A DNA stretch of 54,762 bases from contig CAZNJA010000001.1 in NCBI GenBank assembly GCA_964573245.1, positions 1 through 54,762 on the forward strand, given 5' to 3'. Made by a program: the position numbers and the translations under genes. Positions 9,924-37,978 of the stretch are shown in pieces (the stretch's first letter is position 1; the number at the start of each line of letters is the position of its first letter). The stretch comes from an uncultured bacterium. GTDB lineage: Bacteria; CAIJMQ01. Below the pieces are notes generated by a model, which was given only the letters and a program-made list of their open reading frames with translations, ran no database searches and was not told the origin of the DNA.

Positions 9924-9942
9924 CTTGGTTCAAAAGACAAAT

Positions 9943-9978
9943 TGCCCGGTGGTGTAATCGGTAACACGCAAGATTCTG
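9943..9978 (+). pseudogene. Truncated tRNA-Gln copy (positions 1-36, through anticodon CTG)
   Basis: Coordinates 9939-9978 are identical to 10313-10352, the 5' flank plus 5' half of the intact tRNA-Gln. After a 64-nt insert, the sequence CTGGATCT (10043-10050) matches tRNA positions 34-41, then similarity ends. Confidence 0.8.
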
Positions 9979-10042
9979 CCATGAACCACATCGAAGATGG
10001 ATTCATGGCAGCCCTGAACTGAACTTTGTTCTAGTTCACGGG
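9979..10042 (+). repeat. CCATGAACC-type two-hairpin element inside the truncated tRNA anticodon
   Basis: Hairpin 1 is (CTG)CCATGAA..TTCATGG(CAG). Hairpin 2 is CCCTGAACTGAAC..GTTCTAGTTCACGGG. It has the same design and ends as the element at 10389-10445, and CTG lies on both sides. Confidence 0.55.
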
Positions 10043-10058
10043 CTGGATCTCTTAAATA

Positions 10059-10331
10059 TTGGCTAAAATGTATTATGTTTATATTCTTTGGAGTAAAATA
10101 GATCAAAAGTTTTATATTGGATATACAGCTAATTTAGAAAGAAGATTGCAAGAGCACAAAAATAAGAAAGCATATTCTACGTCACGATTTCATCAGCCTG
10201 AGCTTGTATTTTTTGAGGCTTTTGCTTCAGATAAAGATGCAAGAAGACGAGAAAAGTATTTTAAGACTACTAAAGGTAAAAAAGCTTTAAAGTTGATGTT
10301 AAGAGAAACTATAAATTGCCCGGTGGTGTAA
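10059..10331 (+). CDS. Small GIY-YIG nuclease-domain protein (UPF0213/COG2827-like)
   Basis: 90-aa ORF with YYVYILWS..KFYIGYTANLERRLQEH (GIY...YIG block) and R/E-rich downstream motifs. It starts at TTG 10059 or ATG 10068. The last 5 codons and the TAA stop lie inside tRNA-Gln. Confidence 0.75.
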   Translation: MAKMYYVYILWSKIDQKFYIGYTANLERRLQEHKNKKAYSTSRFHQPELVFFEAFASDKDARRREKYFKTTKGKKALKLMLRETINCPVV

Positions 10332-10391
10332 TCGGTAACACGCAAGATTCTGGATCTTGTTTTCCTGGTTCGAGTCCAGGCTGGGCAGCCA
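10317..10391 (+). tRNA. tRNA-Gln (anticodon CTG), CCA encoded
   Basis: TGCCCGGTGGTGTAATCGGTAACACGCAAGATTCTGGATCTTGTTTTCCTGGTTCGAGTCCAGGCTGGGCAGCCA has a U1-A72 acceptor as in E. coli tRNA-Gln, anticodon loop TTCTGGA and T-arm CCTGGTTCGAGTCCAGG. Confidence 0.9.
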
Positions 10392-10445
10392 TGAACCAGA
10401 ACAAAGTTCGGTTCATGGCCCTAAACCTTACGTGGTTTTAGGGCT
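10389..10445 (+). repeat. CCATGAACC-type two-hairpin element abutting the tRNA-Gln 3' end
   Basis: CCATGAACCAGAAC-aaa-GTTCGGTTCATGG followed by CCCTAAACC-ttacgt-GGTTTTAGGG-CT. Its first three bases are the CCA end of the tRNA. Confidence 0.55.
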
Positions 10446-11115: not shown

Positions 11116-12090
11116 ATGGAAAAAGAAGAATTATTGCAACAGATAAAGAATTCCGCTGAAAAAGGTCTTATAACTAAAGGTGAATTGATTGATGCTTATA
11201 ATACGGGGGCTAAAGTCAAAAAGGATATTTTGTCTGTTCATCATTTAGGTGTTTCAGAAATACTATATTTTATCGGCGGAGCAATTGTTTCCATCGGCAT
11301 TTCTATGTTGATTTGGCAAAATTGGGAGCAATTGAATATCTTCACGAAGATAATTGCTACACTTGGAGCTGGGATAGCTTCTTACTTTGTCGGTGTTTTG
11401 TTTAGTCGTTATGAAAAACTTGATATGGTAGGACAGGCATTTTATTTTATTTCTGCACTAGTTATGCCACTTGGTCTATATGTAGTTTTTGATAACGCCG
11501 GATTAGATTGGGGAAGTTATGCTCAAACTTTAGTTTCAGGAATACTTTTCGCTACTTATCTGTTATCTTATTTTGTTTTTAGAAGAGATATTTTCATCTT
11601 TTTTAATATTATATTCGGAACATGGTTATTTTTTAGTTTTACGAATTTACTTTTAGGAAATAATCCAATTGGCCGCGATTTTAAACTTTATGAATATCGA
11701 GTTTTATTTGTTGGATTGTCGTATATGTTATTGGGATATTACTTTTCGCAAGGCGAAAAAAAGACCCTTAGTGGGATTCTATATGGATTTGGAGTGTTTG
11801 GATTTCTTGCGGCAGCGCTTGCGCTTGGCGGTTGGTCTCCTCAACAAAACGTTTTCTGGGAGATAGCTTTTCCGGGGATTGTTTTTGTGGTTATGTTTTT
11901 AAGCGTTTACCTTAAAAATAGGTCTTTTTTGACCTTTGGTGCATTATATCTAATGGGTTATATTTTGAAGATTACCGGAGAATATTTTACTAAGGGGTTA
12001 GGTTGGCCTCTTTCACTTGTTGTAGTGGGTCTTTCGTTGATTCTTGTGGGATATTTCTCTTTTTCTTTAAACAAAAAATATATGGTCTAA
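11116..12090 (+). CDS. Polytopic integral membrane protein (about 9 TM), unknown function
   Basis: The start is set at MEKEELLQQ (ATG 11116), just after the upstream stop. A short soluble N-terminus is followed by many hydrophobic segments. Its stop overlaps the convergent miaB stop (CTAA). Confidence 0.6.
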   Translation: MEKEELLQQIKNSAEKGLITKGELIDAYNTGAKVKKDILSVHHLGVSEILYFIGGAIVSIGISMLIWQNWEQLNIFTKIIATLGAGIASYFVGVLFSRYEKLDMVGQAFYFISALVMPLGLYVVFDNAGLDWGSYAQTLVSGILFATYLLSYFVFRRDIFIFFNIIFGTWLFFSFTNLLLGNNPIGRDFKLYEYRVLFVGLSYMLLGYYFSQGEKKTLSGILYGFGVFGFLAAALALGGWSPQQNVFWEIAFPGIVFVVMFLSVYLKNRSFLTFGALYLMGYILKITGEYFTKGLGWPLSLVVVGLSLILVGYFSFSLNKKYMV

Positions 12091-13514
12091 TCTATTTCCC
12101 CCTCCAACAGCCCACCCCTTACCTCTATAATCTTCACCTTTACAAGTTTACCGATTAAGTCTTTATCGCTTTTAAAAGAGACGGATTTAAAATTTCGTGT
12201 TTTGCCCACGCACCAGTCCCGACTTACGTCGGGACGATGCGGGGTTTCACCGAATGATTTACTTTTATTCTTTGTGTTATATCCTTCAACAAGAATCTCA
12301 ACTTCTTTGCCGATTAACTTTTCGTTTCTCTTCTGCACTATTTTTTTCTGCAGGGACAAGAGATTATTTAGCCGTTCTTTTTTTATCCCTTCAGGAACAT
12401 TGTCTTCCATTTCGGCGGCTTTTGTTCCCGGTCTTGTTGAATACTTAAATATATAAGACGCATCAAATTCTATTTCTTTGACAAGATTATAAGTATCCAT
12501 AAAGTTTTCTTCGGTTTCGGTAGGGAAACCGACCATTATATCGGTGGTAATACTCACATCTGGAATAGTTTTCCTTATTCTATCAACAAGCCCTTTGTAC
12601 TGTTTCTGTGTGTATCTTCTATTCATCAATTTCAAAATCTTATCGGAACCGGATTGCAGAGCCAGATGTAAATGTTCACATACTTTAGGTAGATCTCTCA
12701 CAGCTTCAATAGTAGCCATAGACATATCCTTTGGGTGAGAAGTGGTAAATCTAATACGCTCTATACCGTCTATCGCATTTATTGTCTTTAGAAGTTCAGC
12801 AAAACTCCTTTGGTTTTCGGTTTTCGGTTTTCCCCCGAGAAATCTGAAAGATTTCCGGGACTTTGGTCCTTGAAATTCCATAGAATTTCTAAGGGGGGTT
12901 TCGTAAGAATTGACATTTTGACCGAGAAGTGTTACTTCCTTTGTGCCTTTACGTGCTAATTCTTTAACTTCATCTTCTATTTCTTCTATAGGGCGACTTG
13001 TTTCTCTACCCCTAACATAAGGCACAATACAATAAGTGCAGTAGTTATTGCACCCACGTATAATAGCCACCCACGCGGATATTTTGTTCTCTCTTGTTTC
13101 ATAAACGGGCGGAGAGAAATCCGCATAATCTTCGGAGGTTTCAATACGCTTCCCATTGGTTTTTAATAAATCTTTTACAAATTCATTGATTTTGGGAATA
13201 CTGTAAGTCCCGCATACAAGATTTAAGCGAGGTATTTTTGTCAACAGGTTGATCCCCTCTTTTTGCGCCATGCATCCGCATATGCCGATTATCAGTTCGG
13301 GTTTTCTATCTTGCTTATACTTGCTCCATTTCCATAAATACGAATATACTCTTTCCTCCGCATGCTGTCTCACGCTGCACGTATTAACAAGTATTACATC
13401 CGCTTCCTGCCAGGCGCCGGTAAATTCATACCCTTCTTTCAACAAAAGCGATTTTATGATTTCGGAGTCGTATTTGTTCATCTGACAGCCGAAAGTCTGA
13501 ATAAATACTTTCAT
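12087..13514 (-). CDS. miaB: tRNA-i6A37 methylthiotransferase MiaB (radical SAM), with two in-frame palindromic insertions
   Basis: The start is set at MKVFIQTFGCQMNKYDSE. It has the radical-SAM CxxxCxxC motif (CNNYCTYCIVPY) and a TRAM-like C-terminus. Extra segments lie at NVNSY-[33 aa]-FAELL and in the TRAM region. Confidence 0.85.
   Translation of the reverse strand: MKVFIQTFGCQMNKYDSEIIKSLLLKEGYEFTGAWQEADVILVNTCSVRQHAEERVYSYLWKWSKYKQDRKPELIIGICGCMAQKEGINLLTKIPRLNLVCGTYSIPKINEFVKDLLKTNGKRIETSEDYADFSPPVYETRENKISAWVAIIRGCNNYCTYCIVPYVRGRETSRPIEEIEDEVKELARKGTKEVTLLGQNVNSYETPLRNSMEFQGPKSRKSFRFLGGKPKTENQRSFAELLKTINAIDGIERIRFTTSHPKDMSMATIEAVRDLPKVCEHLHLALQSGSDKILKLMNRRYTQKQYKGLVDRIRKTIPDVSITTDIMVGFPTETEENFMDTYNLVKEIEFDASYIFKYSTRPGTKAAEMEDNVPEGIKKERLNNLLSLQKKIVQKRNEKLIGKEVEILVEGYNTKNKSKSFGETPHRPDVSRDWCVGKTRNFKSVSFKSDKDLIGKLVKVKIIEVRGGLLEGEID
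12205..12244 (-). repeat. Nested hairpin element inside the miaB coding sequence
   Basis: The coding sense reads CCCCGCA-tc-GTCCCGAC-gtaa-GTCGGGAC-tgg-TGCGTGGG, translated as ETPHRPDVSRDWCVG. The inner palindrome CCCGACGTAAGTCGGG closely resembles those at 28841-28857 and 43012-43030. Confidence 0.6.
12812..12832. repeat. Heptamer tandem GGTTTTC x3 (within miaB)
   Basis: GGTTTTCGGTTTTCGGTTTTC lies directly 5' (plus strand) of the palindromic element at 12832-12898 and is translated as part of KPKTENQ. Confidence 0.7.
12832..12898 (+). repeat. Two-hairpin palindromic element (C-run / hairpin / GGGACTTTGGTC / hairpin / G-run) inside miaB
   Basis: CCCCCGAGAAATCtgaaaGATTTCCGGGACTTTGGTCCTTGAAATTCcataGAATTTCTAAGGGGGG. 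By my hand alignment about 75 percent of columns match the intergenic element at 37607-37677, including an identical 12-mer. Confidence 0.7.
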
Positions 13515-13614
13515 AGTGGGGTTTATTATATAGGCTCTTCGACAGCGGGACAAGTTATTAAGAGGTCGTTTAGGATAGGGTAATTACTACTTTCTGTGCA
13601 GTGAGAAAACTGGC

Positions 13615-16570
13615 TTAGGGATATTCATTAAACTCCGCCCCCGAACTGATGTAAATAGTAGAGTAAGTTATTCCGTAGGCATTGACATCCTGGGTATTTC
13701 CGTATAAGTAGATGTCTCTAACTGAATTACTATAGTATTGGTCGTCTTCTAAGTGGGTATGGTCAGCTTCGTAGAGGACAATCCCGTATCTATTGCCGTG
13801 GATCTCGTTATTGATAAACTGGTTATATTTTCCTCTCCAGACTCCCATTCCCCAACCCTGGTATCTGTTGTTGTATCTTGCGAGGTTATCTCTAACCAGG
13901 TGATTGTTGCCTCCTAAATGAATTCCTTTGGCATTTCTTTCTAAAAGATTATTCCGGATTACCGTGCCTTCTCCGATTACATGAATCCCCCAGAAAGTAT
14001 CGCTTACGGTGTTGCCTTCTATCAAGCAGTTATTTCCGGTGCTGTAGATTCCCTGCCCCCTGCCGTTATTACTGGAGGATAGTGCCGAAGAAGCAGTCAG
14101 GTTACAGTTTCTTATGACGATGTTATCTGCTTCGCAGAAGACTATTATGTCTTCCAGGTACGGATTGATGATAGAGTAGCCCTGGCCGTCAAAGACAATG
14201 CCTTCTGCCTGAATCCAGATACATTTAGGAATTACTTCTTCTCCCAGTAGGTCCCGGGTGAGATAGTAGTTAGTGTAGGGCTGGTCAAGGATCTGGGGGG
14301 AAGAGATAAAAATAGGTGCTCTTGCTTCATAAGCGCCCATATCGGCTAAGGCAAAACCAGTATCAGGGATATCCATCCGCTCCTGGCCTAAGATATCGGT
14401 AGAAGGAGCAATAATATCATCAGCCACATCAAGACAGGGACTATTTTCACTCAATTGTAAACCGTCATCTAAGGTGCAGAATAGACCATCATTGCCGGCT
14501 GGACTACTTACATTTACAAACAAGGGGTCACTGTCAATGTTGTAATCTCCGGGGTAACCCCCTTCTACATTAGAGTAACTGACAACAGTATTTGAAGGTA
14601 GGTACGGGTCTTCATATATTTCATCTCCACTGTTATTCCAAAGAACACAGTTGGTAATTGTTGCATTATTGCTGACTACACCATATCCAATATTTCCGTA
14701 AAAAGTGCAGTTAGTTATTTTCCCATCACCATAAATTGCAACGTCAGTGTTATGGGTAAATACACTGTTTATAACCTCTAAAGAACCTCCATGTATTGCG
14801 CCCCCAACATTGTGGTCGAAAATACAGTTTTTAAGAGTTGCTTCGCCGTATATCCCTCCACCGTAATCAGCTCGGTTGTAACTAAATACACAATTAGTAA
14901 TTGTGGGGTTACCTGTTCCACCATAAGCATTGCATAATCCACCTCCGAAGGAAGCATCATATCCACCGGTAGCATTTCCTCCTGTAATTATTACCCCATC
15001 AAGGATGGCGGTAGGGTTGGCACCAATACCTCTTACAACGTGGGTACTATTATCGGTATAGTTGGAAAAATCAGGAGGATTTCCGTCATTACCGTCCGTG
15101 TCGCCGCTTAGTATAGTTTGATAATTTGCTATATCACGATCATCTTCATTTGCACCGGGTGGTGTGTCATAGTATCCAGCATAACCGCCTTTAACAGTTA
15201 AACGGCTTCTTAACTGAAATGTTGGGCCTCTATAAATGCCGGGTGGAGACGGGTCAAAAAAGTCTGCCTCATGAGGTTTATGTGTTCCGTGTGCTACCCA
15301 AATCTCGTCATAAGGTTGGATTTCAGAATGGTTGAGTGCGTCCTGCAGATATTTAAAGGCGGAGTACCATGATGTACCGTCTCGGTCCGGGTTTGTTTGG
15401 GCAGCATCAACATACCATACATTAGGTTCTACATACTCATATGCTCCCATATCGGCACCTATTCCTCCGTCGTTTCCTACCCCGGGAATGTCAACACGTC
15501 CTTTGCCTAATTTATCAGTAGAAGGTGCTATGGTATCGTTTGCAGCATCAATACACGGGCTGCCTTCCGCTAAGCGCAAGCCATCCTGTAATGGGTTGTC
15601 TGGATCCACAAATAACGGATTACTGTTTATATTACCTTCACCAGGGTATCCATTGGGGTTGGAGCCCGCTATATTAGAATAGGTGACAACCGGATTTGAT
15701 GTCCCCGAATTAAATATTTCGTTTATTCCTCCATTCCGCAAAATACTGTTTGTTATTACAGGGTTACTGTTAGAGTTATAGATAATACCGGCGTAAAATT
15801 CGCTCTTATTTTCAGTAAATGTGCAGTTTGTGATTTCTGGGGAGGAAGAGTTGCGGTTATATATAGCGCCACCCTCAGCTTTACTCCAATTATCATTAAA
15901 GATACAGCTTGTAAATTTTGGTGAAGAAGTGTGGTTATATATTGCACCTCCGCTTCCTAAGTAAATAGCCTCATTTCCGATGAATATACAGTTTGTAAAC
16001 TCTGGAGACGATTCGAAATTGTATACACCCCCACCCTTAGAAAATGCATCATTATTTTTGAATATACAGTTTTTGACTGTAGGGTTGCCATTGTTATTAA
16101 ACATCCCGGCACCTCTTACTTCGTCATCAGTTGGACTTGCTCCCACATAGAAGGCCTTCCCTTCTGTAATAGTGAAGCCATCGAGTATTGCAGTGGGGTT
16201 GGTATTGCTCCCGGTTATAACATGATAGCTATTATCATCATCGTAAATGGGTTCTCTTATGTTACCGCTTAGTATAGTTTCATAAAATACTATATCGCGT
16301 TCATCATGATCCCCTGTATCAATGCCACCATAACCACCTTTAATGGTCACGCTGTCTATAAGTTGGAATGTGGCTGTCCTATCGCCAGTTCCACTCTGAT
16401 TCGCTGTATCACGGTCGGGTTTGTAAGTCCCTTGTGCAACTCTGATTTCATGGCCAGGTTCAAGGTAAGGATTATTGAGAGCGTCCTGTAAATAGTGAAA
16501 TGCATCTGCCCATGATGTGCCATCCTGAAAATAACCGGCACTATCGTCGACATACCAGATATTAGTAATA
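13615..16570 (-). other. Three right-handed parallel beta-helix modules of the giant ORF
   Basis: Two modules of about 375 aa (about 15440-16570 and 14320-15440) each start N[IV]WYVD...DGTSW..AF.YLQDAL and end ADMGAYE, with many N/G-rich about-23-aa rungs. The terminal NosD/PbH1-like module (13615-14320) has GNTVSD..GIHV..GTVIRNN rungs. Confidence 0.6.
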
Positions 16571-19500
16571 GTGGTGGCATTTGCTTCATTAGAATATCCG
16601 GAATTATCAAAATTACCAAAGGCATACATTTGGTAATAGTACATCTGTCCTGCTTCTAACCCGGTATCAGAATAGGTAACCTCATCCGGCCCGATACTGG
16701 CTATCTGTTCGTACGTTCCTCCGGCACCCGTCTTTCTTTCTATCTTGAAACCATCCTCTCCGTCACTGTTATCCTGCCATGTAAGGTCTATCTGGGAAGA
16801 GGAAACGGCCTGGGCAGATAATGGCTCCGGTGGGTGTGGGTTCCATTCATTGGCAAAGACAGCGTAATCCAGGAAATTCACAATGCCGTCACCATTGAAG
16901 TCGCAACGCGCGTCCCAATGCGGGTCACCCGGCTGTGATAACCATGCGGCAATAAATACTTCAAAGTCTGCAAAGTCTACATCTCCATCCTGGTCAAAGT
17001 CGGCGGGAGAGACTGCAACAGCGCTTGCTTCATTGGAATATCCGGAACTGCCGAAGTCACCATAGGCATATACTCGATAATAATAGGTCTGTCCGGTTTC
17101 TAACCCGGTATCAGAATAGGTAACCACATTCTCGCCAACGCTGGCTATCTGTTCGTATGTTCCTTCCGCACCTGTTTTTCTTTCTATCTTAAAGCCGTCT
17201 TCTCCGTCACTGTTATCCTGCCATGTAAGGTCTATCTGGGTGGCGGAAACTGCCTGAGCAGTTAATCCGCTCGGCGAGAGTGGACCCCATTCATTAGCAA
17301 AGACAGCGTAATCCATGAAATTCACAATGCCGTCACCATTGAAGTCGCAGCGCGCGTCCCAATTCGGGTCACCCGGCTGTGACAGCCAAGCTGCAATAAA
17401 TACTGCAAAGTCTGCAAAGTCCACGTCGCCGTCCTGGTCAAAGTCAGCAGGCGAGGCTGCAACAGCGCTTGCTTCGTTGGAGTATCCTGAATTACCGAAG
17501 CCGCCAAATGCATAGACCCGATAATAATAAATCTGTCCTGGAGTTAAACCGGTATCCGAATAGGTAGTCACATTTGGCCCGACATCGGCTATCTGTTCAT
17601 ATGTGCCTTCCGCACCTGTTTTTCTTTCTATCTTAAAGCCGTCTTCTCCGTCACTATTATCCTGCCATGTAAGGTCTATCTGGGTGGCGGAAACTGCCTG
17701 AGCAGTTAGTCCGCTTGGCGAGGATGGGTTCCATTCGTTGGCAAAGACAGCATAATCCAGGAAATTCACAATGCCGTCATCATTGAAGTCGCAGCGCGCG
17801 TCCCAATTCGGGTCACCCGGCTGTGATAGCCAGGCAGCTGTAAATGTTGCAAAGTCTGCAAAGTCCACATTGCCGTCCTGGTCAAAGTCAGCAGGAGAAA
17901 CCAAACCTGTAGAGATAGTAACGATATCTTCTTTTGAGACTCCGTAATTATAACCATCATAGGGGATGCAGACTATTCTAAACTCGTCATCTTCACCGAT
18001 GTTATAAGTAGTGCAACTTAAGGTGTTAGTAGTTGCTCCCGAGAGAAGAGCCCCATTTTTATACCACTGATACGCATAATCCGGAGAGTCCCCATCCGCA
18101 TCATACCAGCCTGAAGGAGTGGCTGTTAAATCATTATTGGGATAAGCCGGGTCGGGAGTGATTGTGACGCTTGTAATCAAAGGCGGCGTATTGGAAATAG
18201 TGACAGTATCTTCTTTTGCCTCCCCGGGATCTTTACCATCATGAGGGGTGCAAATTACTTTTATTTGGTCTCCTTTAACGAAATTAGAAGAAGCCAGGGT
18301 ATCGGTGGTGGCACCTGAAATAGGAGATCCGTTTTTATACCACTGGTAGAGATAGCCTTCCGGGTCTCCCTCTGCGTCATACCAGCCTGAAGGAGTGGCT
18401 GTTAAATTATTATTGGTATAAGCCGGGTCAGGGCTGATAGTAACGCTTGTAATTGAGGGCGGCGTATTAGAAGCACTAGAAATAGTGATAGTATCTTCCC
18501 TTGCCACCCCGGGGTCATAGCCATCATAAGGAGTACATATTATTTTTATTTGGTCTCCTTCAACAAAATTAGTAGAGGCCAGGGTATTGGTGGTAGCCCC
18601 TGAGATGGGAGATCCATTTTTCTGCCATTGGTACTGATAACCAGGAGAATCGCCGTCTATATCTGACCAGCCGGAAGGAGTGGCTGTTAAATCATTATTG
18701 GGATAAGCCGGGTCGGGAGTAATGGTAACACTGGTAATTGAAGGCGGCGTATTTGAAATAGTGATAGTGTCCTCTTTTGCCTCCCCGGGGTCATAGCCGT
18801 CATAAGGGATACATATTATTTTTATTTGGTCTCCTTTAACGAAATTAGAAGAAGCTAGGGTAGCGGTGGTAGCGCCGCTGATATCCTGCCAGGAGCCGAT
18901 AAACTTCTGCCACTGGTACTGATAGCCTTCTGCGTCCCCATCCGCGTCATCCCATCCTGAAGGAGTAGCAGTTAAATCATTATTGGTATAAGCCGGGTCG
19001 GGAGTGATTGTAACGCCGGTAATCGAAGGCGGTGTATTGGTGGTTGTTCCCGTGCCGGAAGAACCCAAACCTGTCTCGACAGCATCACCATTGCGAGCTT
19101 TTACCCGGAAAGAATAAAGAGTCCGTGCGGAAAGCCCGGTGGCGGTAACTACTCCCCATGTGCTTTCTGTTTGCCAGACCTCGGTTGAACCATTATCGCC
19201 GCCGGCAGCATCCAGGTAATAATCAAAGGTAACATTATGGATAGCATATTCGGTATTAGGTGGATTCAGTCCGGGAACAATGTCCACGTCCAAACTTGAA
19301 GGAGTCGGATTATCTACTATAGGACTTCCCGGCGTCTCCGCCACAGTATAGACCTCAATCATCCCTGAATATCCGGTCTCATTAGGAACAGAAGCACTGT
19401 CTCTTGCTTTAACCTTATAATCATAAAGAGTATTTGGATTCAGGCCTGAATCAGAGTAAGAACTACTGCTCTGCCAGGAGCTGCTGTTGCCACTGGTAGA

Positions 19501-22500
19501 TTCAAAATAATACGCTACGGGAGGACTGCCAATATCGACCGCTGTAGTGGCAGTCATCTCAATCGAAGAGGAAGTCAGGGCGGAGGGTTCGGTCTCCCAG
19601 GTCATCGGGTTCGGGATGGGAGGAGTAGTATCAGCTGTTCCTGCTACCGAAATAGATAAATTATAATAATTGGTAGCACCATTATATCCTCTGACCTCAA
19701 TAAAATAAAAACCCGAGATGGGAACACTGCTCACGCTTACCGTCTCACTATCATTGGTTGTCTCGGAAGAATCAATCTGAGTTTGTGAAGGGTCATAAAG
19801 ATAAAGGTCTAAGTCGCCATAGGCATTTGTAAAATTATTAATGGTAGCGGTAAGAGTGTCTCCCACATTTAAGTTAACTTTATACCAGTCACTATCGTAA
19901 CTCTTAAGGTTATTATAGCTTCCCGAGGAAAGTTCATGCGCGTCAGCTAAAGTATCGTTATCTTCATAGGAATCATCGTTATCATAGATTCCGTGTCGGG
20001 CAAAAGCAAGTATGATCTGGGTCTCATGCGGGGTGCCGTTGCCGACATTTCCATCGCCGCCGAATCCTAAGGCGGGGTTGTCATCAGTTTCAAGCATCTC
20101 ATAAAGACTTTCCAGGAAATTGAAAGGCTTGCCGTCATGAATGTGCCTGAATATTACCTTGTCCGCCACCGCTTTGCCCACTCCCGGCATTTGCCGGAAA
20201 TCCCAGAGGGCTCCGGAATAAACAACAGAATTATGATGAACCCAACCCAAATCATTATAATTAGGATCCCTGGAATTTCCATTCGGAACAACCCCTGGAC
20301 CAAGGATCCAGTAGTCATTAGGCGGTTCTGGGTCAGAGATTTTATTCCTTATCCCCTGGTCATCAAAGCGCATTTCATGGACATTCTGAGCAATGTCCCG
20401 CGCCCCGTAAGGAAGCACGTATTCGCCTATAATGGGGTCGCCGGTAACCGAACAGGCAAAGTAATCAGCCAATCCCTCGTCCATTGTTCCCGGTTGCAGC
20501 AGGTATGGTAAATCATAGATATGGTCATTTACCCCATGGGTATACTCGTGATAAATTACATCCGAGCCCCGGGCGGGTTTTATAACATTACCCTGAAGAT
20601 CGCCATCGCCGAAATGAATACTCTGGTCACTGGAATCATAATACGCATTACCAAAATTGGTTCCCACATGGACATTTGCCTGCATCTGATAGTCCATCCC
20701 GATGCCCCCGTAACGGTTCGGGCTATTATAACCCATGTCATTCTTAAAGAAATCATGGATAAAATTAACGTGATAAAAGACATTTACCTCATCTAAGTGA
20801 GTATCGACAAGTCCATAATTCCAGAGATGGTCTACCTGAGTAGCCATGGGATACTGGGCAATAGCCTCAGCAGTATCTTCATTTATTGCCCGGCAGTAGG
20901 GCCCTTTGAGCTCGAAGATTACATCGTTTCCGGAGTCACTAATAAGGTAATAACCGGAAATGTTTGTTTCGCCTTCAACAAATACTCCTCCACCTTTGTC
21001 CAGGGTTACGGTCTCGTGAGAAATGTCTCTCGCTGTGAGTGGGTCGTCTCCATTTTCAGGAAAGACCATTCCTGAGACATTTCCTTCTACATAATCATTA
21101 CCGTCGGTATTGAAAAAGTTAAAGGCAGAAGAGTAACCGCTCCAACCTGAGTCATTCCCAGCTTTCACATGCCACCAGTATTGAGTGCCGTCTTGAGGAA
21201 ATCCTACTACAAGTTTCCAATCCCAATTACCGGCTGAACCTTCATAAAAAATGCTGCTAAAGGCGGCATCTGAAGCAACCTGAAGATAATAGTCATCTGC
21301 TCCGGAAGAAAGTGTCCACCGGAAAAGAATAATCTCTCCGTCAACGTCACTACCATCAGATGGGGAAAGTAACGTCGGCGGGATAGGGACAGAGTCAGCA
21401 TTAATAAAACTTCGGACGCTCGACCAAGAGCTCCAGCCAAGCCAGTTGCCCGCCGACACCCGCCACCAATACTGCCTCCCGTCGTCACTAAAACCTCCCA
21501 GGGTTATCCCCGTAAAATCTCCTATTGCTTCGTCATAGACTACACTAGCAAATCCGCTATCAATGGAAATCTGAAGCCAATAATCATCCGCCCCGTCCGA
21601 TTGGAACCACCAGAAATCCACCGCTGTTCCTCCCACCGCGGCATTATTTTCCGGTAAATATAGCACCGGAGGGTCGGGAATAAGAGACTCGCCATTAACA
21701 AAAGTCCACACACTCGACCAATTACTCCAACCGATACTATTCCCCGCACTCACCCGCCACCAATAGGACTGGCCGTCATCTCCAAAATCATAAAGGTCCA
21801 CCCATAAATAGGGACCAATCGCATCATCAAAGACGACTTGGGTAAAGCCGCTATCCGTAGAGACCTGAATCCAATAATCATTCGCTCTATCAGCATGTTC
21901 CCAGTCGAAAGGAATCATGGTCCCGGGAACATTGACCCCGTTTGCCGGAGAGATCAATGCCGGAATATCAGGAATAGTGGTAGGTTCGGTCCAGGTAAAA
22001 CTCTCGGTGCGTTCATTGTTGGTTTCGTCAGATTCAGTTACTTCATTATAGGAATCAGCGATAAACTCAAAGCTATGCCCGCCGGGCGTGAAGCCCATGT
22101 CAAAGGGAGCGGTTAAGTTGATATAAGTCCGGGCCGGGAAAGCAGGTATTTCCCAATAATATATATTTACACCATCGACATATAAATCTACGTAAAAGGG
22201 AACACCGGTAGTATCGTAACCGATGTTGTTAAGCTGGAACCCAACAGTGCTCCCTTCATAAGCTACCAAAGAAGTGGGGTCAAAAATATCGGTTATTTCT
22301 AAATCAGGCGTGCCGGTCCAGGTCCAACTCTTGGTGCGTTCATTGTTGGTTTCGTCAGATTCAGCTATGTCATCATCGGAGTCAGCGACAAATCTAAAGC
22401 TATGCTCCCCGGCCACGAACCCCCCGGACGCGGTAGCATAAGGCTCGATATAAGTCCGTGCCGAGAGAGAAGGTATATTCCAATTAGTTACATTCACATC

Positions 22501-23367
22501 GTCAACATATAAAGCTAGGGTAAAGGGACCGACGGCATCAGCGTAACCAGCGTTGGCAAGTCGGGCCTTAATGATGCTCTCTTCGCCGCCTTCTAAAGAA
22601 GTGGGATCATAAATATGGGTTATTTCTAAATCCGGCGTGCCGGTCCAGGTCCAACTCTCGGTGCGTTCATTGTTGGTTTCGTCAGATTCATCTACATCAT
22701 CATAGTAGTCAGCGACAAATCTAAAGCTATGCTCCCCGGCTAAGAAGAACCCCGCGGGAAAGGGAATATAAGGCCGGATGTAAGTCCATGCATCCAGAGA
22801 AGGGATATTCCAACTAGCTACACTCGCATCGTCAACATATAAAATTAAGGTAGATGGGTCGGCGTTGCCAGTTCCAATATTGGTAAGTTCGGCCTCAATG
22901 ATGCTCTCTTCGCCGCCTTCTAAAGAAGTGGGATCATAAATATCAGTTAATTCTAAATCAGGCGTGCCGGTCCAGGTCCACCATTCGGTGCGGTCCCCAT
23001 CAGCCCAAACATAAATTTTATGTGTTCCTTCGTCCAAGTAGGATCCGGGGATAACATCATAATAATAAACGGTTTCCCCCGCATTTATATAACCATCCCA
23101 CCCAACTATCCAGTAATCATCAACATATATCTCATAAACATAGTCTCCACTATCTCCATAATTATGTAGCTGCGTACGTATTGTACAATCTTCCAGAGCT
23201 TCTAAAGGGGTAACAGGCCAAAAATCTATTACCTGAACATCGGTATAGGCCATAGCAGTTGAGACGGTTGTAAAAGTTATGGCTATCAGGAAAAGCAGGG
23301 TAAAAATAGATACACGTGAGGAGGTTTTTGGAACGAGAATACGAATAATATTAGCTAATAAATTCAT
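13615..23367 (-). CDS. Giant (3250 aa) secreted multidomain protein: CARDB-like repeats, beta-sandwich repeats, M36/M4-type zinc metalloprotease, PPC domain, FN3, dockerin-like modules and three parallel beta-helix modules
   Basis: A single uninterrupted ORF with an N-terminal signal/anchor (IFTLLFLIAITFTTVSTAMA). The catalytic core has VNVFYHVNFIHDFF, HEYTHG and MDEGLADYF, giving HExxH plus Glu at thermolysin-like spacing. Repeats are described in separate features. Confidence 0.85.
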   Translation of the reverse strand: MNLLANIIRILVPKTSSRVSIFTLLFLIAITFTTVSTAMAYTDVQVIDFWPVTPLEALEDCTIRTQLHNYGDSGDYVYEIYVDDYWIVGWDGYINAGETVYYYDVIPGSYLDEGTHKIYVWADGDRTEWWTWTGTPDLELTDIYDPTSLEGGEESIIEAELTNIGTGNADPSTLILYVDDASVASWNIPSLDAWTYIRPYIPFPAGFFLAGEHSFRFVADYYDDVDESDETNNERTESWTWTGTPDLEITHIYDPTSLEGGEESIIKARLANAGYADAVGPFTLALYVDDVNVTNWNIPSLSARTYIEPYATASGGFVAGEHSFRFVADSDDDIAESDETNNERTKSWTWTGTPDLEITDIFDPTSLVAYEGSTVGFQLNNIGYDTTGVPFYVDLYVDGVNIYYWEIPAFPARTYINLTAPFDMGFTPGGHSFEFIADSYNEVTESDETNNERTESFTWTEPTTIPDIPALISPANGVNVPGTMIPFDWEHADRANDYWIQVSTDSGFTQVVFDDAIGPYLWVDLYDFGDDGQSYWWRVSAGNSIGWSNWSSVWTFVNGESLIPDPPVLYLPENNAAVGGTAVDFWWFQSDGADDYWLQISIDSGFASVVYDEAIGDFTGITLGGFSDDGRQYWWRVSAGNWLGWSSWSSVRSFINADSVPIPPTLLSPSDGSDVDGEIILFRWTLSSGADDYYLQVASDAAFSSIFYEGSAGNWDWKLVVGFPQDGTQYWWHVKAGNDSGWSGYSSAFNFFNTDGNDYVEGNVSGMVFPENGDDPLTARDISHETVTLDKGGGVFVEGETNISGYYLISDSGNDVIFELKGPYCRAINEDTAEAIAQYPMATQVDHLWNYGLVDTHLDEVNVFYHVNFIHDFFKNDMGYNSPNRYGGIGMDYQMQANVHVGTNFGNAYYDSSDQSIHFGDGDLQGNVIKPARGSDVIYHEYTHGVNDHIYDLPYLLQPGTMDEGLADYFACSVTGDPIIGEYVLPYGARDIAQNVHEMRFDDQGIRNKISDPEPPNDYWILGPGVVPNGNSRDPNYNDLGWVHHNSVVYSGALWDFRQMPGVGKAVADKVIFRHIHDGKPFNFLESLYEMLETDDNPALGFGGDGNVGNGTPHETQIILAFARHGIYDNDDSYEDNDTLADAHELSSGSYNNLKSYDSDWYKVNLNVGDTLTATINNFTNAYGDLDLYLYDPSQTQIDSSETTNDSETVSVSSVPISGFYFIEVRGYNGATNYYNLSISVAGTADTTPPIPNPMTWETEPSALTSSSIEMTATTAVDIGSPPVAYYFESTSGNSSSWQSSSSYSDSGLNPNTLYDYKVKARDSASVPNETGYSGMIEVYTVAETPGSPIVDNPTPSSLDVDIVPGLNPPNTEYAIHNVTFDYYLDAAGGDNGSTEVWQTESTWGVVTATGLSARTLYSFRVKARNGDAVETGLGSSGTGTTTNTPPSITGVTITPDPAYTNNDLTATPSGWDDADGDAEGYQYQWQKFIGSWQDISGATTATLASSNFVKGDQIKIICIPYDGYDPGEAKEDTITISNTPPSITSVTITPDPAYPNNDLTATPSGWSDIDGDSPGYQYQWQKNGSPISGATTNTLASTNFVEGDQIKIICTPYDGYDPGVAREDTITISSASNTPPSITSVTISPDPAYTNNNLTATPSGWYDAEGDPEGYLYQWYKNGSPISGATTDTLASSNFVKGDQIKVICTPHDGKDPGEAKEDTVTISNTPPLITSVTITPDPAYPNNDLTATPSGWYDADGDSPDYAYQWYKNGALLSGATTNTLSCTTYNIGEDDEFRIVCIPYDGYNYGVSKEDIVTISTGLVSPADFDQDGNVDFADFATFTAAWLSQPGDPNWDARCDFNDDGIVNFLDYAVFANEWNPSSPSGLTAQAVSATQIDLTWQDNSDGEDGFKIERKTGAEGTYEQIADVGPNVTTYSDTGLTPGQIYYYRVYAFGGFGNSGYSNEASAVAASPADFDQDGDVDFADFAVFIAAWLSQPGDPNWDARCDFNGDGIVNFMDYAVFANEWGPLSPSGLTAQAVSATQIDLTWQDNSDGEDGFKIERKTGAEGTYEQIASVGENVVTYSDTGLETGQTYYYRVYAYGDFGSSGYSNEASAVAVSPADFDQDGDVDFADFEVFIAAWLSQPGDPHWDARCDFNGDGIVNFLDYAVFANEWNPHPPEPLSAQAVSSSQIDLTWQDNSDGEDGFKIERKTGAGGTYEQIASIGPDEVTYSDTGLEAGQMYYYQMYAFGNFDNSGYSNEANATTITNIWYVDDSAGYFQDGTSWADAFHYLQDALNNPYLEPGHEIRVAQGTYKPDRDTANQSGTGDRTATFQLIDSVTIKGGYGGIDTGDHDERDIVFYETILSGNIREPIYDDDNSYHVITGSNTNPTAILDGFTITEGKAFYVGASPTDDEVRGAGMFNNNGNPTVKNCIFKNNDAFSKGGGVYNFESSPEFTNCIFIGNEAIYLGSGGAIYNHTSSPKFTSCIFNDNWSKAEGGAIYNRNSSSPEITNCTFTENKSEFYAGIIYNSNSNPVITNSILRNGGINEIFNSGTSNPVVTYSNIAGSNPNGYPGEGNINSNPLFVDPDNPLQDGLRLAEGSPCIDAANDTIAPSTDKLGKGRVDIPGVGNDGGIGADMGAYEYVEPNVWYVDAAQTNPDRDGTSWYSAFKYLQDALNHSEIQPYDEIWVAHGTHKPHEADFFDPSPPGIYRGPTFQLRSRLTVKGGYAGYYDTPPGANEDDRDIANYQTILSGDTDGNDGNPPDFSNYTDNSTHVVRGIGANPTAILDGVIITGGNATGGYDASFGGGLCNAYGGTGNPTITNCVFSYNRADYGGGIYGEATLKNCIFDHNVGGAIHGGSLEVINSVFTHNTDVAIYGDGKITNCTFYGNIGYGVVSNNATITNCVLWNNSGDEIYEDPYLPSNTVVSYSNVEGGYPGDYNIDSDPLFVNVSSPAGNDGLFCTLDDGLQLSENSPCLDVADDIIAPSTDILGQERMDIPDTGFALADMGAYEARAPIFISSPQILDQPYTNYYLTRDLLGEEVIPKCIWIQAEGIVFDGQGYSIINPYLEDIIVFCEADNIVIRNCNLTASSALSSSNNGRGQGIYSTGNNCLIEGNTVSDTFWGIHVIGEGTVIRNNLLERNAKGIHLGGNNHLVRDNLARYNNRYQGWGMGVWRGKYNQFINNEIHGNRYGIVLYEADHTHLEDDQYYSNSVRDIYLYGNTQDVNAYGITYSTIYISSGAEFNEYP
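16573..17905 (-). repeat. 3 x 444-nt tandem coding repeat (dockerin-like double EF-hand segment + FN3)
   Basis: The anchor GAAATTCACAATGCCGTC recurs at 16873, 17317 and 17761, an exact 444-nt period. The units encode SPADFDQDG.VDFADF...CDFN.DGIVNF.DYAVFANEW plus FN3 (IDLTWQDNSDGEDGFKIERK...YYYRVYA) and are about 85-90 percent identical at protein level by eye. Confidence 0.85.
17905..19035 (-). repeat. 4 x 276-285-nt tandem coding repeat (about 93-aa beta-sandwich units)
   Basis: The anchor GGCGGCGTA/GGCGGTGTA occurs at 18182, 18458, 18743 and 19028. The units encode NTPPSIT.VTITPDPAY.NNDLTATPSGW.D.DGD..GY.YQW.KNG..ISGATT.TLAS.NFV.GDQIK.IC.P.DG.DPG. Confidence 0.8.
20536..20550 (-). other. 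HExxH zinc-binding motif (HEYTH) of the protease domain
   Basis: The reverse complement of atgggtatactcgtg is CAC GAG TAT ACC CAT. The third-ligand Glu candidate, in MDEGLADYF, lies 20 residues after the second His, as in thermolysin. Confidence 0.8.
21105..21975 (-). repeat. 3 x about-97-aa Trp-rich beta-sandwich repeats
   Basis: The units resemble ...F.W....ADDYWLQ[IV]S.DS.F..VV.D.......YWWRVSAGN..GWS.WSSV..F.N. Confidence 0.7.
21975..23250 (-). repeat. 4 x CARDB-like repeats (327-nt period in the last three)
   Basis: The anchor GTGCGTTCATTGTTGGTTTCGTC occurs at 22007, 22334 and 22661. The units end ...SDETNNERTESWTWTGTPDLE, a typical CARDB C-terminal D/E-x-NN motif. Confidence 0.75.
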
Positions 23368-27321: not shown

Positions 27322-27400
27322 TCCTCCCGTAGTACTCCCGTAGGAGTACGGAGTCCCCCCTGTTAGTCTCGCCATTGTATCAGTGGCGGACTAGGGGGGA
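27322..27400 (-). repeat. Two-hairpin leader element L1 (C-run / hairpin / AACAGGGGGGACTCCG / hairpin / CGGGAGGA)
   Basis: The minus sense reads TCCCCCCTAGTCCGCCActgatacaaTGGCGAGACTAACAGGGGGGACTCCGTACTCCtacgGGAGTACTACGGGAGGA, followed by tttgttATG. It is a homolog of 28795-28865. Confidence 0.7.
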
Positions 27401-28794: not shown

Positions 28795-28865
28795 TCCTCC
28801 CGAAGCACTCCCTACGGGAGTGCGAAGTCCCCCTGTTATCCCGACGTTACGTCGGGGTAGGGGGA
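28795..28865 (-). repeat. Two-hairpin leader element L2
   Basis: The minus sense reads CTCCCCCTACCCCGACGtaaCGTCGGGATAACAGGGGGACTTCGCACTCCCgtaGGGAGTGCTTCGGGAGGAG, followed by taaaaATG. It contains the last codons and TAA stop of the upstream trmO-like gene. Confidence 0.7.
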
Positions 28866-29350
28866 GAGTTCCATTCCATTTTTATATCTATTACGGGACT
28901 ACCATCAATTGCGTCCAACCCTTCAACATATAGTTTAGTTCCTTCTACTTTAACTAATTTTACATCCTGAATAGCAATTTTAGATAGCCTGTGAGGTGTT
29001 CTTGAAGCAAAAACTCCTACCTTTTTACCGTCCAGACCCCTGCTAAAAACAGTTCTTACTTTATTGAATTTATGTAAGTAATATACCAAAGTTATATATT
29101 TTTCTTCCTCAAGTTTATATAAAAATGGCTTTTGGGAGGGTAATAATTCTATGCAGGATATACTTTCCTTACCTAAAGTTCCGAAGTCTGTCCCGTTAAG
29201 GTTTAGTTTGTTTTTTACTATGCCTATAGGATATATCTTAAAAGGTTTTGTTTTACCGTATATACAGTAAATGCATATGTTCTTATTATCAATGACAAAA
29301 ATCTCATCTTTTTTAAAACTTTTTTGGCATTTCTGGCAGGTATAATCCAT
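28847..29350 (-). CDS. trmO: TrmO/TsaA-family tRNA methyltransferase-like protein with an N-terminal Cys-rich segment
   Basis: 167-aa ORF. YPIGIVKNK...VGVFASRTPHRLSKIAIQDVKLVKVEG.KLYVEGLDAIDGSPVIDIK matches the UPF0066/TsaA pattern. The C-terminal NSPPTPT* is encoded by element L2. Confidence 0.65.
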   Translation of the reverse strand: MDYTCQKCQKSFKKDEIFVIDNKNICIYCIYGKTKPFKIYPIGIVKNKLNLNGTDFGTLGKESISCIELLPSQKPFLYKLEEEKYITLVYYLHKFNKVRTVFSRGLDGKKVGVFASRTPHRLSKIAIQDVKLVKVEGTKLYVEGLDAIDGSPVIDIKMEWNSPPTPT

Positions 29351-36285: not shown

Positions 36286-37614
36286 ATGTTTGCAAATCTA
36301 ACCGGCAAATTACAAGCGATTTTTAAAAATTTAAGAGGGCAGGGAGTAATCAGCGAAAGCAATATAAAGGAAATGTTACACGAGATTCAACTTGCTTTGC
36401 TTGAAGCGGATGTAAATTATAGAATAGTAAAAGAATTTGTTGAGGCCGTTGCGCAAGATGCTATCGGGCAAAAAATTATCACTAGTATTACTCCTTCCCA
36501 GAAATTGGTTCAAATAGTCCACGAAAAATTAATTGAATTACTCGGCAAAGACTCTTCGCCGCTAAAACACTCATCAAATCCACCTAACATTATTATGCTG
36601 GTTGGGCTGCAGGGAAGCGGTAAAACAACAACAAGCAGTAAATTGGCAAAGATTTTAACCAATAAAGGGAAGAACGTTTTACTTGCCGGGACAGACACAC
36701 AAAGGCCTGCGGCAAGAGAGCAGCTTCAATTTCTCGGGAAAAACTTGGGACTACCCGTGATTACGGATGGGAAAAATCCGATTGACATAGCTGTAAACGC
36801 GGTAAAGAAAGCGAATTCTATGGGCGCAGACGCTTTAATTATAGACACTCAGGGACGGCTTCATGTAAACAATGAACTGATGGAAGAACTTATCAGAATG
36901 AAAGAAGCGGTTTCTCCCTCCGAAATTCTACTCGTTGCAGATGCAATGACAGGACAGGATGCGGTAAATATCTCAAAAAGTTTTAATGAAAGATTAGGTA
37001 TAACAGGCGTAATCCTTACAAAGTTGGACACCGATACCCGCGGAGGAGCAGCAATATCAGTTAGGAAAGTTACAAATGTGCCGATTAAATTCATAGGCGT
37101 GGGTGAAAAAACAGAAGATTTGGAAATTTTTTATCCTGAGCGAATGGCTTCGCGCATATTAGGTATGGGAGATATCCTAACATTGGTTGAAAAGGCAGAG
37201 GTTGAAGTTGAAAAAGGCGATGCTCAAAGATTAGCAAAAAAACTTAAAGCGGAAAAACTCGACTTCGAAGATTTTCTTACTCAATTAAGACAGATGAAAA
37301 AAATCGGGCCTTTGTCCAAAATGCTAGACTATTTGCCAGTAGACCCTTCTTTAAAAAATTTTGATGTTTCCGAAGAAAGATATAAACATATAGAAGCTAT
37401 AATTTTATCAATGACTCTTGAAGAAAGGTGCAACCCACGTATAATAGACGGTCGCAGAAAAAAGAGAATTGCTGAAGGAAGCGGGACGAGTGTCCAGGAT
37501 ATAAATCAATTATTAAAGCAATTTTATTCCGTTCAAAAATTTGTAAAGGAAATGGCTGGCAAAGGAGCACAAATGAAAAGAAAGGGGTTTCTACCTAAGT
37601 TGATTTCCCCCTAG
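36286..37614 (+). CDS. ffh: Signal recognition particle protein Ffh
   Basis: 442-aa ORF with an NG domain (GLQGSGKTTT, DTQGR, TKLD) and a Met-rich M domain. The TAG stop lies inside the palindromic element at 37607-37677. Confidence 0.95.
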   Translation: MFANLTGKLQAIFKNLRGQGVISESNIKEMLHEIQLALLEADVNYRIVKEFVEAVAQDAIGQKIITSITPSQKLVQIVHEKLIELLGKDSSPLKHSSNPPNIIMLVGLQGSGKTTTSSKLAKILTNKGKNVLLAGTDTQRPAAREQLQFLGKNLGLPVITDGKNPIDIAVNAVKKANSMGADALIIDTQGRLHVNNELMEELIRMKEAVSPSEILLVADAMTGQDAVNISKSFNERLGITGVILTKLDTDTRGGAAISVRKVTNVPIKFIGVGEKTEDLEIFYPERMASRILGMGDILTLVEKAEVEVEKGDAQRLAKKLKAEKLDFEDFLTQLRQMKKIGPLSKMLDYLPVDPSLKNFDVSEERYKHIEAIILSMTLEERCNPRIIDGRRKKRIAEGSGTSVQDINQLLKQFYSVQKFVKEMAGKGAQMKRKGFLPKLISP

Positions 37615-37677
37615 AAATTGCAGAATGCAATTTCAGGGACTTTGGTCTCGGAAATTCTTCGAATTTCTCGAGGGGGG
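37607..37677 (+). repeat. Two-hairpin palindromic element (same family as 12832-12898)
   Basis: CCCCCTAGAAATTGCAgaaTGCAATTTCAGGGACTTTGGTCTCGGAAATTCttcGAATTTCTCGAGGGGGG. A further AGGGGGACT motif follows at 37690-37698. Confidence 0.7.
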
Positions 37678-37732
37678 AAATCAGGATAGGGGGACTATGC
37701 CTAAATTGTCTTAAACATTAAATGGAGGAATT

Positions 37733-37978
37733 ATGGCGATAAGAATCAGATTAAAAAGAATAGGCAAAAAGAAACAAAGTTATTACAGAATAGTGGTTGC
37801 AGATGTTTGTTTTCCCAGAGATGGCAGACTGATTGAAGAAATTGGGCTTTATGACCCGAATCAAAATCCAGCAAAAGTGGATATAAAAAAAGAACGTTTG
37901 GAATACTGGATGGCAAATGGAGCTACTGCCACGCCTACAGTAGAAAATATCCTCAAAAGCAGACCAAAAGCAAAATAA
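37733..37978 (+). CDS. rpsP: 30S ribosomal protein S16
   Basis: 81-aa ORF starting MAIRIRLKRIGKKKQSYYRIVVAD, with a GGAGG SD. Confidence 0.95.
   Translation: MAIRIRLKRIGKKKQSYYRIVVADVCFPRDGRLIEEIGLYDPNQNPAKVDIKKERLEYWMANGATATPTVENILKSRPKAK

Follow-up and report, generated by a model that had tools for sequence, protein, structure and literature searches.

A 63-nt two-hairpin palindromic repeat lying in frame within miaB of an uncultured bacterium and its relatives in several phyla

How does a conserved tRNA-modification gene come to hold, in frame, a palindromic sequence that is found again between genes of the same genome, and to what kind of repeat does that sequence belong? This question is raised by a 54,762-nt stretch of DNA from an uncultured bacterium (GenBank assembly GCA_964573245.1, contig CAZNJA010000001.1, positions 1 to 54,762; hereafter the window), in which the miaB coding sequence (12087–13553, minus strand) contains a two-hairpin block. 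The host gene is a 488-aa open reading frame (ORF) with UPF0004, radical SAM and TRAM domains (Pfam PF00919, PF04055 and PF01938), which matches the solved MiaB of Bacteroides uniformis (PDB 7MJV, E = 5e-104); the three domains and this strong similarity together identify it as MiaB. In the alignment with 7MJV, the stretch from the NVNSY motif to the next helix comprises 33 residues in the window protein vs 11 in the solved one. An earlier note, made from the sequence alone, had estimated about 22 extra residues over about 11 in E. coli MiaB; the shorter figure agrees with 7MJV, whereas the element itself contributes 21. The note had also read the whole block as ETPLRNSMEFQGPKSRKSFRFLGGKPKTENQRS, antisense and in frame between NVNSY and FAELL, and this placement is confirmed, with the 488-aa ORF intact. 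The comparisons described here confirm, at the level of sequence, that the segment is an insertion of one 63-nt element into miaB, and we consider it probable (roughly 0.6) that it is a member of a dispersed family of non-autonomous palindromic repeats of the repetitive extragenic palindromic (REP)/REPIN or Rickettsia palindromic element (RPE) kind.

The insertion is delimited by orthologues that carry or lack it. A metagenome scan for miaB orthologues returned four close ones, the remainder being about 45% identical and used as a 9-aa baseline, and the nearest named relatives of the window MiaB were Ratteibacteria and Omnitrophota metagenome-assembled genomes (MAGs). The orthologue alignment proposed in the earlier note came out in its favour, with the segment missing from distant MiaB proteins (68 of 75 such genes have a linker of 9 aa, with no period-7 signal) and polymorphic among close ones, where relatives without the element have a linker of 12–18 residues. 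At the protein level, the block of the window recurs in orthologue P0002, 12 residues stand at the insertion position in P0003, P0005, P0007, P0008 and P0013, and P0014 (locus L003) and P0004 (L004) have other 21-residue blocks at the same position, which at the DNA level are the same element. Filled and empty orthologues differ by exactly 63 nt (21 codons), and a target duplication is not visible. Thus, filled L003 reads TTCAAGA TTCAAAA TTC[63 nt]AAGA TTAAAGA and the empty L119 and L121 read (TTCAARA)x4, while filled L125 reads (CAGAARA)x4 CA[63 nt]GAAAAT and the empty L123 and L124 have the same array without the core. Two further pairs have their empty partner at the protein level only: L001, GAAAACG[63 nt]GAAAACC GATAACC GATAACC, is matched, as is the filled site of the window, by P0003, whose ENRKPKTENQSS implies (GAAAACC)x4, and L004, in which the core follows unit 3 of (AATATCA)n, is matched by P0005.

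The element has entered the MiaB loop on at least four separate occasions, in either orientation and in several frames, with the core placed after unit 1, within unit 3, after unit 3 and within unit 5 of four different arrays. The element is forward in L003 and L004 (two frames) and reversed in the window, L001 and L122; its translation is PLRNSMEFQGPKS in the window, PEKFREFPGLSP for L003 and PREIQGISGTKS for L004. Because the peptide varies with orientation and frame, no conserved peptide is encoded. In the window, the element-encoded residues are about 220–240 of MiaB, PLRNSMEFQGPKSRKSFRFLG in the minus-strand translation.

The structure of the element is defined by its two window copies and by an alignment of 70 distinct copies. 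Copy A, the hairpin doublet antisense to miaB, has its 63-nt core at 12833–12895 on the plus strand (covariance model 74.5 bits on the plus and 67.3 on the minus strand) and extends over 12832–12898 with its flanking bases. Its hairpin 1 (12834–12859), CCCG(A)GAAATC-loop-GATTTCCGGG, has a bulged A on the 5' side and is drawn from the consensus structure and covarying pairs; the spacer ACTTTGGT (12860–12867), ACT-N-AGT in the family consensus of the 70-copy alignment, is the centre of the inverted pair; and hairpin 2 (12868–12894), CCTTGAAATTC-loop-GAATTTC(T)AAGG, likewise marked by covarying pairs, has a bulged T on the 3' side. Copy B is intergenic, with its core at 37608–37673 on the plus strand (65.8 bits on the plus and 68.4 on the minus strand; folding z-score −4.7) and its flanking bases included at 37607–37677. 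It lies about 60 nt upstream of rpsP (ATG at 37733), has an orthologous counterpart in L009, and is enclosed by outer inverted flanks TGATTT ... AAATCA (37601–37683), the same arms being present at the non-orthologous loci L082 and L100. Both copies show the order C-run, hairpin, GGGACTTTGGTC, hairpin, G-run, the exact 12-mer GGGACTTTGGTC occurring in the window twice, once per copy, and a filter-free covariance-model scan of the window detected these two copies only. The common architecture described in the earlier note is thus borne out by both sequences, and its hand-aligned identity of about 75% comes to 74% of columns when computed with the flanks included. Moreover, its description of two hairpins whose differences keep complementarity is supported by covariation.

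The unit therefore consists of 63 nt, in which two bulged hairpins of roughly 26–28 nt are inverted around ACTNAGT; the bulge lies 5' in hairpin 1 and 3' in hairpin 2, which makes the two units an inverted pair. Two adjacent hairpins are also the RNAalifold fold of the 70 copies, with compensatory changes in 9 of 21 pairs (column pair 7-35: GC 34, UA 28, CG 5; 49-76: UA 49, CG 20; 50-75: CG 25, GC 24, UA 18). Single-sequence folding of copy B had suggested a cloverleaf with a four-way junction; this was rejected: neither of its two specific helices shows a compensatory change, and in 49 of 70 copies one of the pairs would have to be G-U, while the basal stems of the two-hairpin fold covary instead. 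G-U pairs are about as rare as A-C (roughly 6 vs 5 of 1470 cells) and the element scores nearly equally on both strands with the covariance model or profile, from which we infer a constraint on the DNA, or on both strands, rather than on one RNA strand. A search of Rfam 15 gave no match reaching the gathering score in the window and only chance-level matches around both copies (E 0.25–0.75). The element ends, CCCC(G/T)AGAAAT and ATTTCYNRGGGG, are inverted repeats, and a longer element with such ends was not seen in the fetched loci.

To define the family, the pattern TTTCNGGGACTN{2,3}GTCNNNGRAAT, derived from four copies, was run on one-genome-per-species contigs, where it matched at least 113 stretches. 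From the 70 distinct copies, a covariance model and an nhmmer profile were built, and the profile confirms 89 of the 113 listed stretches, which contain about 104 copies, some of them missed by the pattern; the remaining 24 (Rhodococcus, Nonomuraea and others) are rejected by the profile as chance pattern matches. The AT-rich flanks looked alike by eye, and the idea that many of the genome matches were one and the same miaB site was considered and dropped, most of these copies being intergenic. Among the matches listed, by record title, the host loci belong to Omnitrophota (48), Planctomycetota (21), Ratteibacteria (5), Desantisbacteria (3), Nitrospirota (2), Auribacterota (2), unclassified genomes (7) and an Aenigmatarchaeota bin (1). 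The last of these, L036, is the sole archaeal match listed, and its contig is probably mis-binned because its copy is nearly identical to those of the Sedimentisphaerales MAG loci L026, L051 and L103. One Omnitrophota MAG holds at least nine copies and several others at least five to seven, with up to three copies within 8 kb, and the GC content of hosts ranges from 0.33 to 0.65. The covariance and profile scan that the earlier note had called for thus found further copies in plenty (at least 89 stretches), so that the similarity of the two window copies is not a matter of chance; nor is the family specific to the low-GC, uncultivated type of genome that the note had in mind, given this range of phyla and GC content.

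About 90% of copies lie outside verified genes, mostly between genes, and about 10% lie in coding sequence; roughly one copy in ten is in frame within a long ORF that has real protein on both sides. A Pfam match spans the insert in CobT (L039), in HypF (L085, where it lies between the zinc fingers and the YrdC-like domain), in RlmN (L115), in LeuC (L064) and in a DUF5131 protein (L011), and the insert in HisF of a Ratteibacteria MAG (L076) was confirmed separately.

The core is conserved to a degree that its host gene is not. Between the window and L001, the core is identical at 63 of 63 positions, while the rest of the gene has a nucleotide identity of 0.79 and four-fold sites agree at 0.54 (n = 127); for L122 the values are 62 of 63, 0.79 and 0.47 (n = 130). 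The core is the sole 63-nt stretch of miaB without any difference, whereas the arrays beside it do vary (GAAAACC, GATAACC, GAAACCC). One and the same 63-mer recurs in three MAGs (L003, L088 and L092), and the alignment of 70 copies shows a core that hardly varies from phylum to phylum. A core that is frozen while its gene diverges suggests that the DNA sequence is kept by selection or by correction from other copies.

A second feature of the insertion sites is a tandem array with a period of 7 nt. In the window, (GAAAACC)x3 on the minus strand (12812–12832; GGTTTTC x3 on the plus strand) encodes KPKTENQ, and comparison of the window, L001 and L122 identifies a degenerate first unit, GAAACCC, on the other side of the core (12896–12902, minus strand), which is GAAAACG in L001. 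The earlier note had located the heptamers correctly and had counted them as part of the insert; this second part falls, since element-free orthologues carry a period-7 array too. To measure the association, 21 nt from each side of a copy were joined with the core removed and self-match was scored at a threshold of at least 0.6, with controls from the same loci. Period 7 was found in 13.3% of copies vs 0.4% of control windows, and no other period from 3 to 12 was enriched. Such arrays accompany intergenic copies (L041, L070, L061, L006, L076 and others) as well as the intragenic copies in cobT, hypF and hisF.

The unrelated genes miaB and hisF have the same array and the same junction (CA|GAAAAT). 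In miaB, filled L125 reads (CAGAARA)n CA[core]GAAAATAAAAATGAT and L123 is empty, without the core; in hisF, filled L076 and L203 read (CAGARRA)n CAGAAATCA[core]GAAAAT... and the empty L202 reads CAGAAATCA|GAAAAT, a difference of 63 nt only, with nothing duplicated at the junction. Many HisF orthologues have the array-coded segment LQKTEDRRQKS... without the core, whereas canonical HisF has neither. In L203, the left array of hisF is one unit shorter, so the core is read in another frame, which is restored downstream; the right-hand array that follows the core has four CATCTGA units in L203 and two units in L202, and L076 has a CTGNNNN-period tract there, the unit number varying between orthologues with the reading frame kept. 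A derivation of the array units from the ends or arms of the core was considered and is not supported (best match 5.85 of 7 vs 5.54 for shuffled cores). Two histories are conceivable: the array, as the landing site, may itself spread from gene to gene, or it may move together with the core, which would then be precisely lost at a later time.

Beyond the arrays, inverted-repeat flanks of at least 7 nt enclose 29% of copies vs 5.6% of controls, and longer flanks are common to groups of non-orthologous copies; the core is thus a module within larger mosaic repeats. A second module, the hairpin GTCCGCC-TNAG-GCGGAC followed by GAATTAATCC, stands beside the core in L022, L028, L079, L072 and L038, and is common to one Omnitrophota MAG (three loci), a second Omnitrophota MAG and a Planctomycetia MAG. 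Moreover, L017:3051 (Planctomycetia) and L099:5586 (Omnitrophota) share about 45 nt of flank per side, these flanks being themselves inverted repeats, GGTGTTTGCGCATTTTG ... CAAAATGCGCCAAACAC, which may reflect a larger shared element, a binning problem or transfer.

For the protein, the AlphaFold model gives MiaB residues 219–248 a predicted local distance difference test score (pLDDT) below 50 and a coil conformation, between a strand (206–210) and a helix (251–259). The element-coded segment is thus predicted to form a disordered loop between strand and helix of the radical-SAM barrel, in line with the surface loop that the earlier note had expected. The same gene contains a second, unrelated palindromic insert in its TRAM domain (12212–12256, minus strand; +45 nt), which encodes SFGETPHRPDVSRDW and whose hairpin is GTCCCGAC-GTAA-GTCGGGAC (12216–12235); the site, residues 428–444, is also modelled as coil with pLDDT below 50. 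A palindromic insert in this domain is found in frame in L001, L004, L122 and L123 as well (+36 to +48 nt) and is absent from L003, L119 and L120. A third variable MiaB site, with extra residues after LLKT (for example PPKSWQAGR and GGEPPASDKGGRAGR; alignment columns about 165–176), is seen at the protein level in orthologues P0010, P0012 and P0016.

According to the reading that we prefer, in which the miaB segment is a REP/REPIN- or RPE-like repeat, the element would be copied or moved as single-stranded hairpin DNA, and the likely agent would be a trans-acting HUH/Y1 enzyme of the RAYT (REP-associated tyrosine transposase) or IS200 type, which would account for the hairpins, the missing duplication and the missing coding capacity. 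Landing would be preferred in period-7 tandem arrays, and the insertions that survive within genes would be those that keep the frame and are free of stop codons, survival being easy given a length of 21 codons and few stops in most frames. The ribosome would read through the element, leaving MiaB with 21 extra residues as a disordered barrel loop, and the constraint would act on DNA rather than peptide. Several observations weigh against this account. A phmmer search with an approximate IS200-type TnpA query matched 0 of 3832 ORFs in the 8-kb loci and the window. An unpaired GTAG or CGTC tag is not conserved in the 70-copy alignment, the nearest motif being (N)AGTC, partly in a stem. The core is nearly the same across several phyla while REPIN families are usually lineage-specific, and frozen orthologous cores are unlike a decaying selfish insertion, a host function or continual correction being possible. 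Lastly, filled and empty sites of miaB and hisF differ by 63 nt only, and the absence of a target duplication is not fully secure because a 7-bp duplication would be hidden in a period-7 array. The arrays and the frozen core stay unexplained by a REP/REPIN/RPE-like origin.

The strength of core conservation brings forward, as a less probable contender, a host-maintained DNA site serving binding, topology or recombination for a conserved protein, with spread into genes as a side effect. Orthologous cores at 62–63 of 63 against about 50% at four-fold sites, beside arrays that change, near-invariance across phyla and strand symmetry of the constraint would all suit such a site, and E. coli REP/BIME (bacterial interspersed mosaic element) sequences bind gyrase and integration host factor. 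Presence/absence polymorphism in close orthologues, however, makes any given copy dispensable, the contexts are very different (coding loops, both orientations, various outer palindromes), and no partner protein was identified. Period 7, for its part, could point to a miniature transposon moved by a DDE transposase with 7-bp staggered cuts, whose duplications on insertion and excision would build the arrays and leave core-less arrays as old footprints. That period 7 alone is enriched in the joined flanks, that arrays persist at empty sites and that, by eye, the 7 nt flanking the core match at 6 of 7 positions in L004, L070, L061, L084, L001, the window and L088 would agree with it; we nevertheless consider it improbable. 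Filled and empty sites do not differ in their number of array units (four each in L003 and L119/L121), nothing is duplicated at the junction that hisF and miaB have in common, most copies are without a flanking direct repeat, a transposase or longer parent element was not seen in the fetched loci, and stepwise 7-nt growth inside a gene would break the frame at each step.

The strong covariation and stable fold, together with copy B in the rpsP leader and its orthologous counterpart kept in L009, could also be ascribed to a structured RNA, cis-regulatory or small, with the miaB copy acting on its mRNA. This is somewhat less credible still, given unrelated gene contexts, both orientations relative to host genes, near-equal strand scores, G-U pairs not favoured over A-C, and an Rfam search that at E <= 1 yielded chance-level matches only. 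A segment missing from the mature protein, excised from the mRNA or bypassed in translation, has a parallel in phage T4 gene 60, where translational bypassing involves hairpins at take-off sites, and nothing direct speaks for it here. Frame retention would not be required of a segment that is removed, which counts against this very unlikely option: all intragenic copies are in frame and free of stop codons, the net insert length is divisible by three in hisF and in each of the four miaB events, and the loss of a left-array unit in hisF shifts the frame of the core, which is then restored downstream. Chance similarity, or an ancestral lineage-specific MiaB linker, we regard as negligible in view of the element's presence in 89 listed stretches, the 9-aa linker that 68 of 75 distant MiaB genes have, and the differences in presence, orientation and frame between close orthologues. 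We tentatively raise the possibility that the doublet and the period-7 arrays form one undescribed two-part system, in which purine-rich heptamer arrays move from one surface loop to another among unrelated housekeeping genes and serve as the specific landing site, or are the by-product, of a cross-phylum hairpin element kept unchanged at orthologous sites by selection or continual correction. If true, this would imply a new mechanism of single-strand DNA insertion or a host function for the doublet.

Other repeats in the window are recorded here in their own right. A second two-hairpin palindrome family, CCTCCCG-[hairpin]-GAGTCCCCCCTGTTA-[variable hairpin]-TAGGGGGG, is present at 27324–27398 and 28797–28866; both copies are intergenic, about 1.47 kb apart, and form islands of GC 0.60–0.65 in the 39% GC contig, with folding energies of −43 to −47 kcal/mol. 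Its variable hairpins resemble TRAM-domain inserts of miaB, 28842–28858 resembling the hairpin top at 12216–12235 and 27368–27390 resembling the insert of L122. At a distance of 374 nt upstream of the genuine tRNA-Gln(CTG) gene (10317–10391), 47 nt of its 5' part are repeated with 94% identity; each of the two repeat regions (9932–10041 and 10306–10419) continues into a palindrome of about 32 nt, GCCATGAACC...GGTTCATGGC, and ARAGORN reports one tRNA-Gln only. The miaB neighbour is a 3250-aa ORF (13615–23367, minus strand) with several internal tandem domain repeats, whose DNA periods are 444, about 280 and 327 nt.

Overall, these findings indicate that palindromic repeats in working genes extend beyond Rickettsia and a few Proteobacteria and are common in phyla with few cultivated members, Omnitrophota, Planctomycetota and Ratteibacteria among them. 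For annotation, 21-residue inserts and heptamer-coded linkers would otherwise be mistaken for lineage-specific protein features, and such inserts also distort alignments, trees and structure predictions. The MiaB loop presents a natural experiment, with at least four occupations and cores unchanged amid a diverging gene, that bears on how repeats are maintained. We found no published explanation for the link between array and core or for arrays common to unrelated genes, which points to a testable insertion mechanism.

Intragenic REP dimers coding for 20–30 residues have been documented in several phyla, including the PVC (Planctomycetes, Verrucomicrobia and Chlamydiae) bacterium Opitutus terrae (Di Nocera, De Gregorio and Rocco 2013, PMC3733652), and our finding is accordingly a good example rather than a new category. 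As in those dimers, some of which are nested in larger palindromes, short stem-loop units form close inverted dimers that are mostly intergenic, with a minority in frame in genes of known proteins that gain 20–30 residues, some genes are hit twice, some dimers lie within larger palindromes, and the PVC group is among the hosts (Opitutus terrae and Rhodopirellula baltica for REP) (PMC3733652). The described super-families are marked by a GTAG or CGTC tag (PMC3733652), whereas the 63-nt element is without this unpaired terminal tetranucleotide, has stems with a conserved bulge and an initial C-run, has a core that is near-invariant across several phyla, and is associated with period-7 arrays, which PMC3733652 does not mention. 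The example is lifted above routine by one loop recolonised in both orientations, by the frozen core and by the unexplained link to the arrays.

Relative to the REPIN–RAYT system (Bertels and Rainey 2011, PMC3116915; Ton-Hoang et al. 2012), the element agrees in consisting of two inverted units, each an imperfect palindrome of 20–40 nt (halves of roughly 26–28 nt), around a short spacer (ACTNAGT), in its lack of coding capacity, in its multi-copy and mainly extragenic occurrence (at least five to nine copies per MAG) and in its long persistence without decay. It differs in that no RAYT was found near it (approximate query, 8-kb loci and window only), that its core is common to several phyla while REPINs are reported to be vertically inherited and lineage-specific, and that it also lies inside genes while REPINs are described as extragenic. 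Bacterial miniature inverted-repeat transposable elements (Correia/NEMIS, RUP, ERIC and Nezha; PMC10969869) are likewise small, non-coding and dispersed, have inverted-repeat ends, and are sometimes co-transcribed or inside genes; they have terminal inverted repeats matching a parent insertion sequence and target-site duplications, while for the element no longer parent with its ends was seen in the fetched loci and no target duplication is visible at the miaB and hisF sites. In Rickettsia, RPEs are inserted in frame in housekeeping genes with the ORF kept, and the host proteins are thought to be still functional (Ogata et al. 2000, as cited in PMC3733652). The earlier note's appeal to this precedent is valid, although the intragenic REP dimers show that it is not the sole one. 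In the same manner, our element is in frame with an intact ORF in miaB, hisF, cobT, hypF, rlmN, leuC and the DUF5131 gene. The likeness to RPE is one of behaviour only, as length and host phyla differ and probably sequence too, RPE-1 being roughly twice as long as the 63-nt element; moreover, the MiaB loop has accepted our element either way round and in three frames, which favours no particular peptide.

More distant parallels come from organelles and cyanobacteria. A possible parallel is offered by the double-hairpin elements of Allomyces mitochondria and the GC clusters of yeast mitochondria, mobile modules of two hairpins that also sit, non-destructively, in coding and rRNA genes but are organellar and unrelated in sequence. 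The STRR (short tandemly repeated repetitive) sequences of heterocystous cyanobacteria are dispersed arrays of 7-nt units of unknown origin, whose unit sequences differ from those of the miaB and hisF arrays; to our knowledge, they neither flank hairpin repeats nor occupy coding loops. We found nothing in the literature on such palindromic repeats in Omnitrophota. Membership among RAYT-mobilised elements is not proven, and the element fits the REP/REPIN/RPE kind in architecture, distribution and behaviour; we therefore file it as REP/REPIN/RPE-like in its working and as a new family of that kind.

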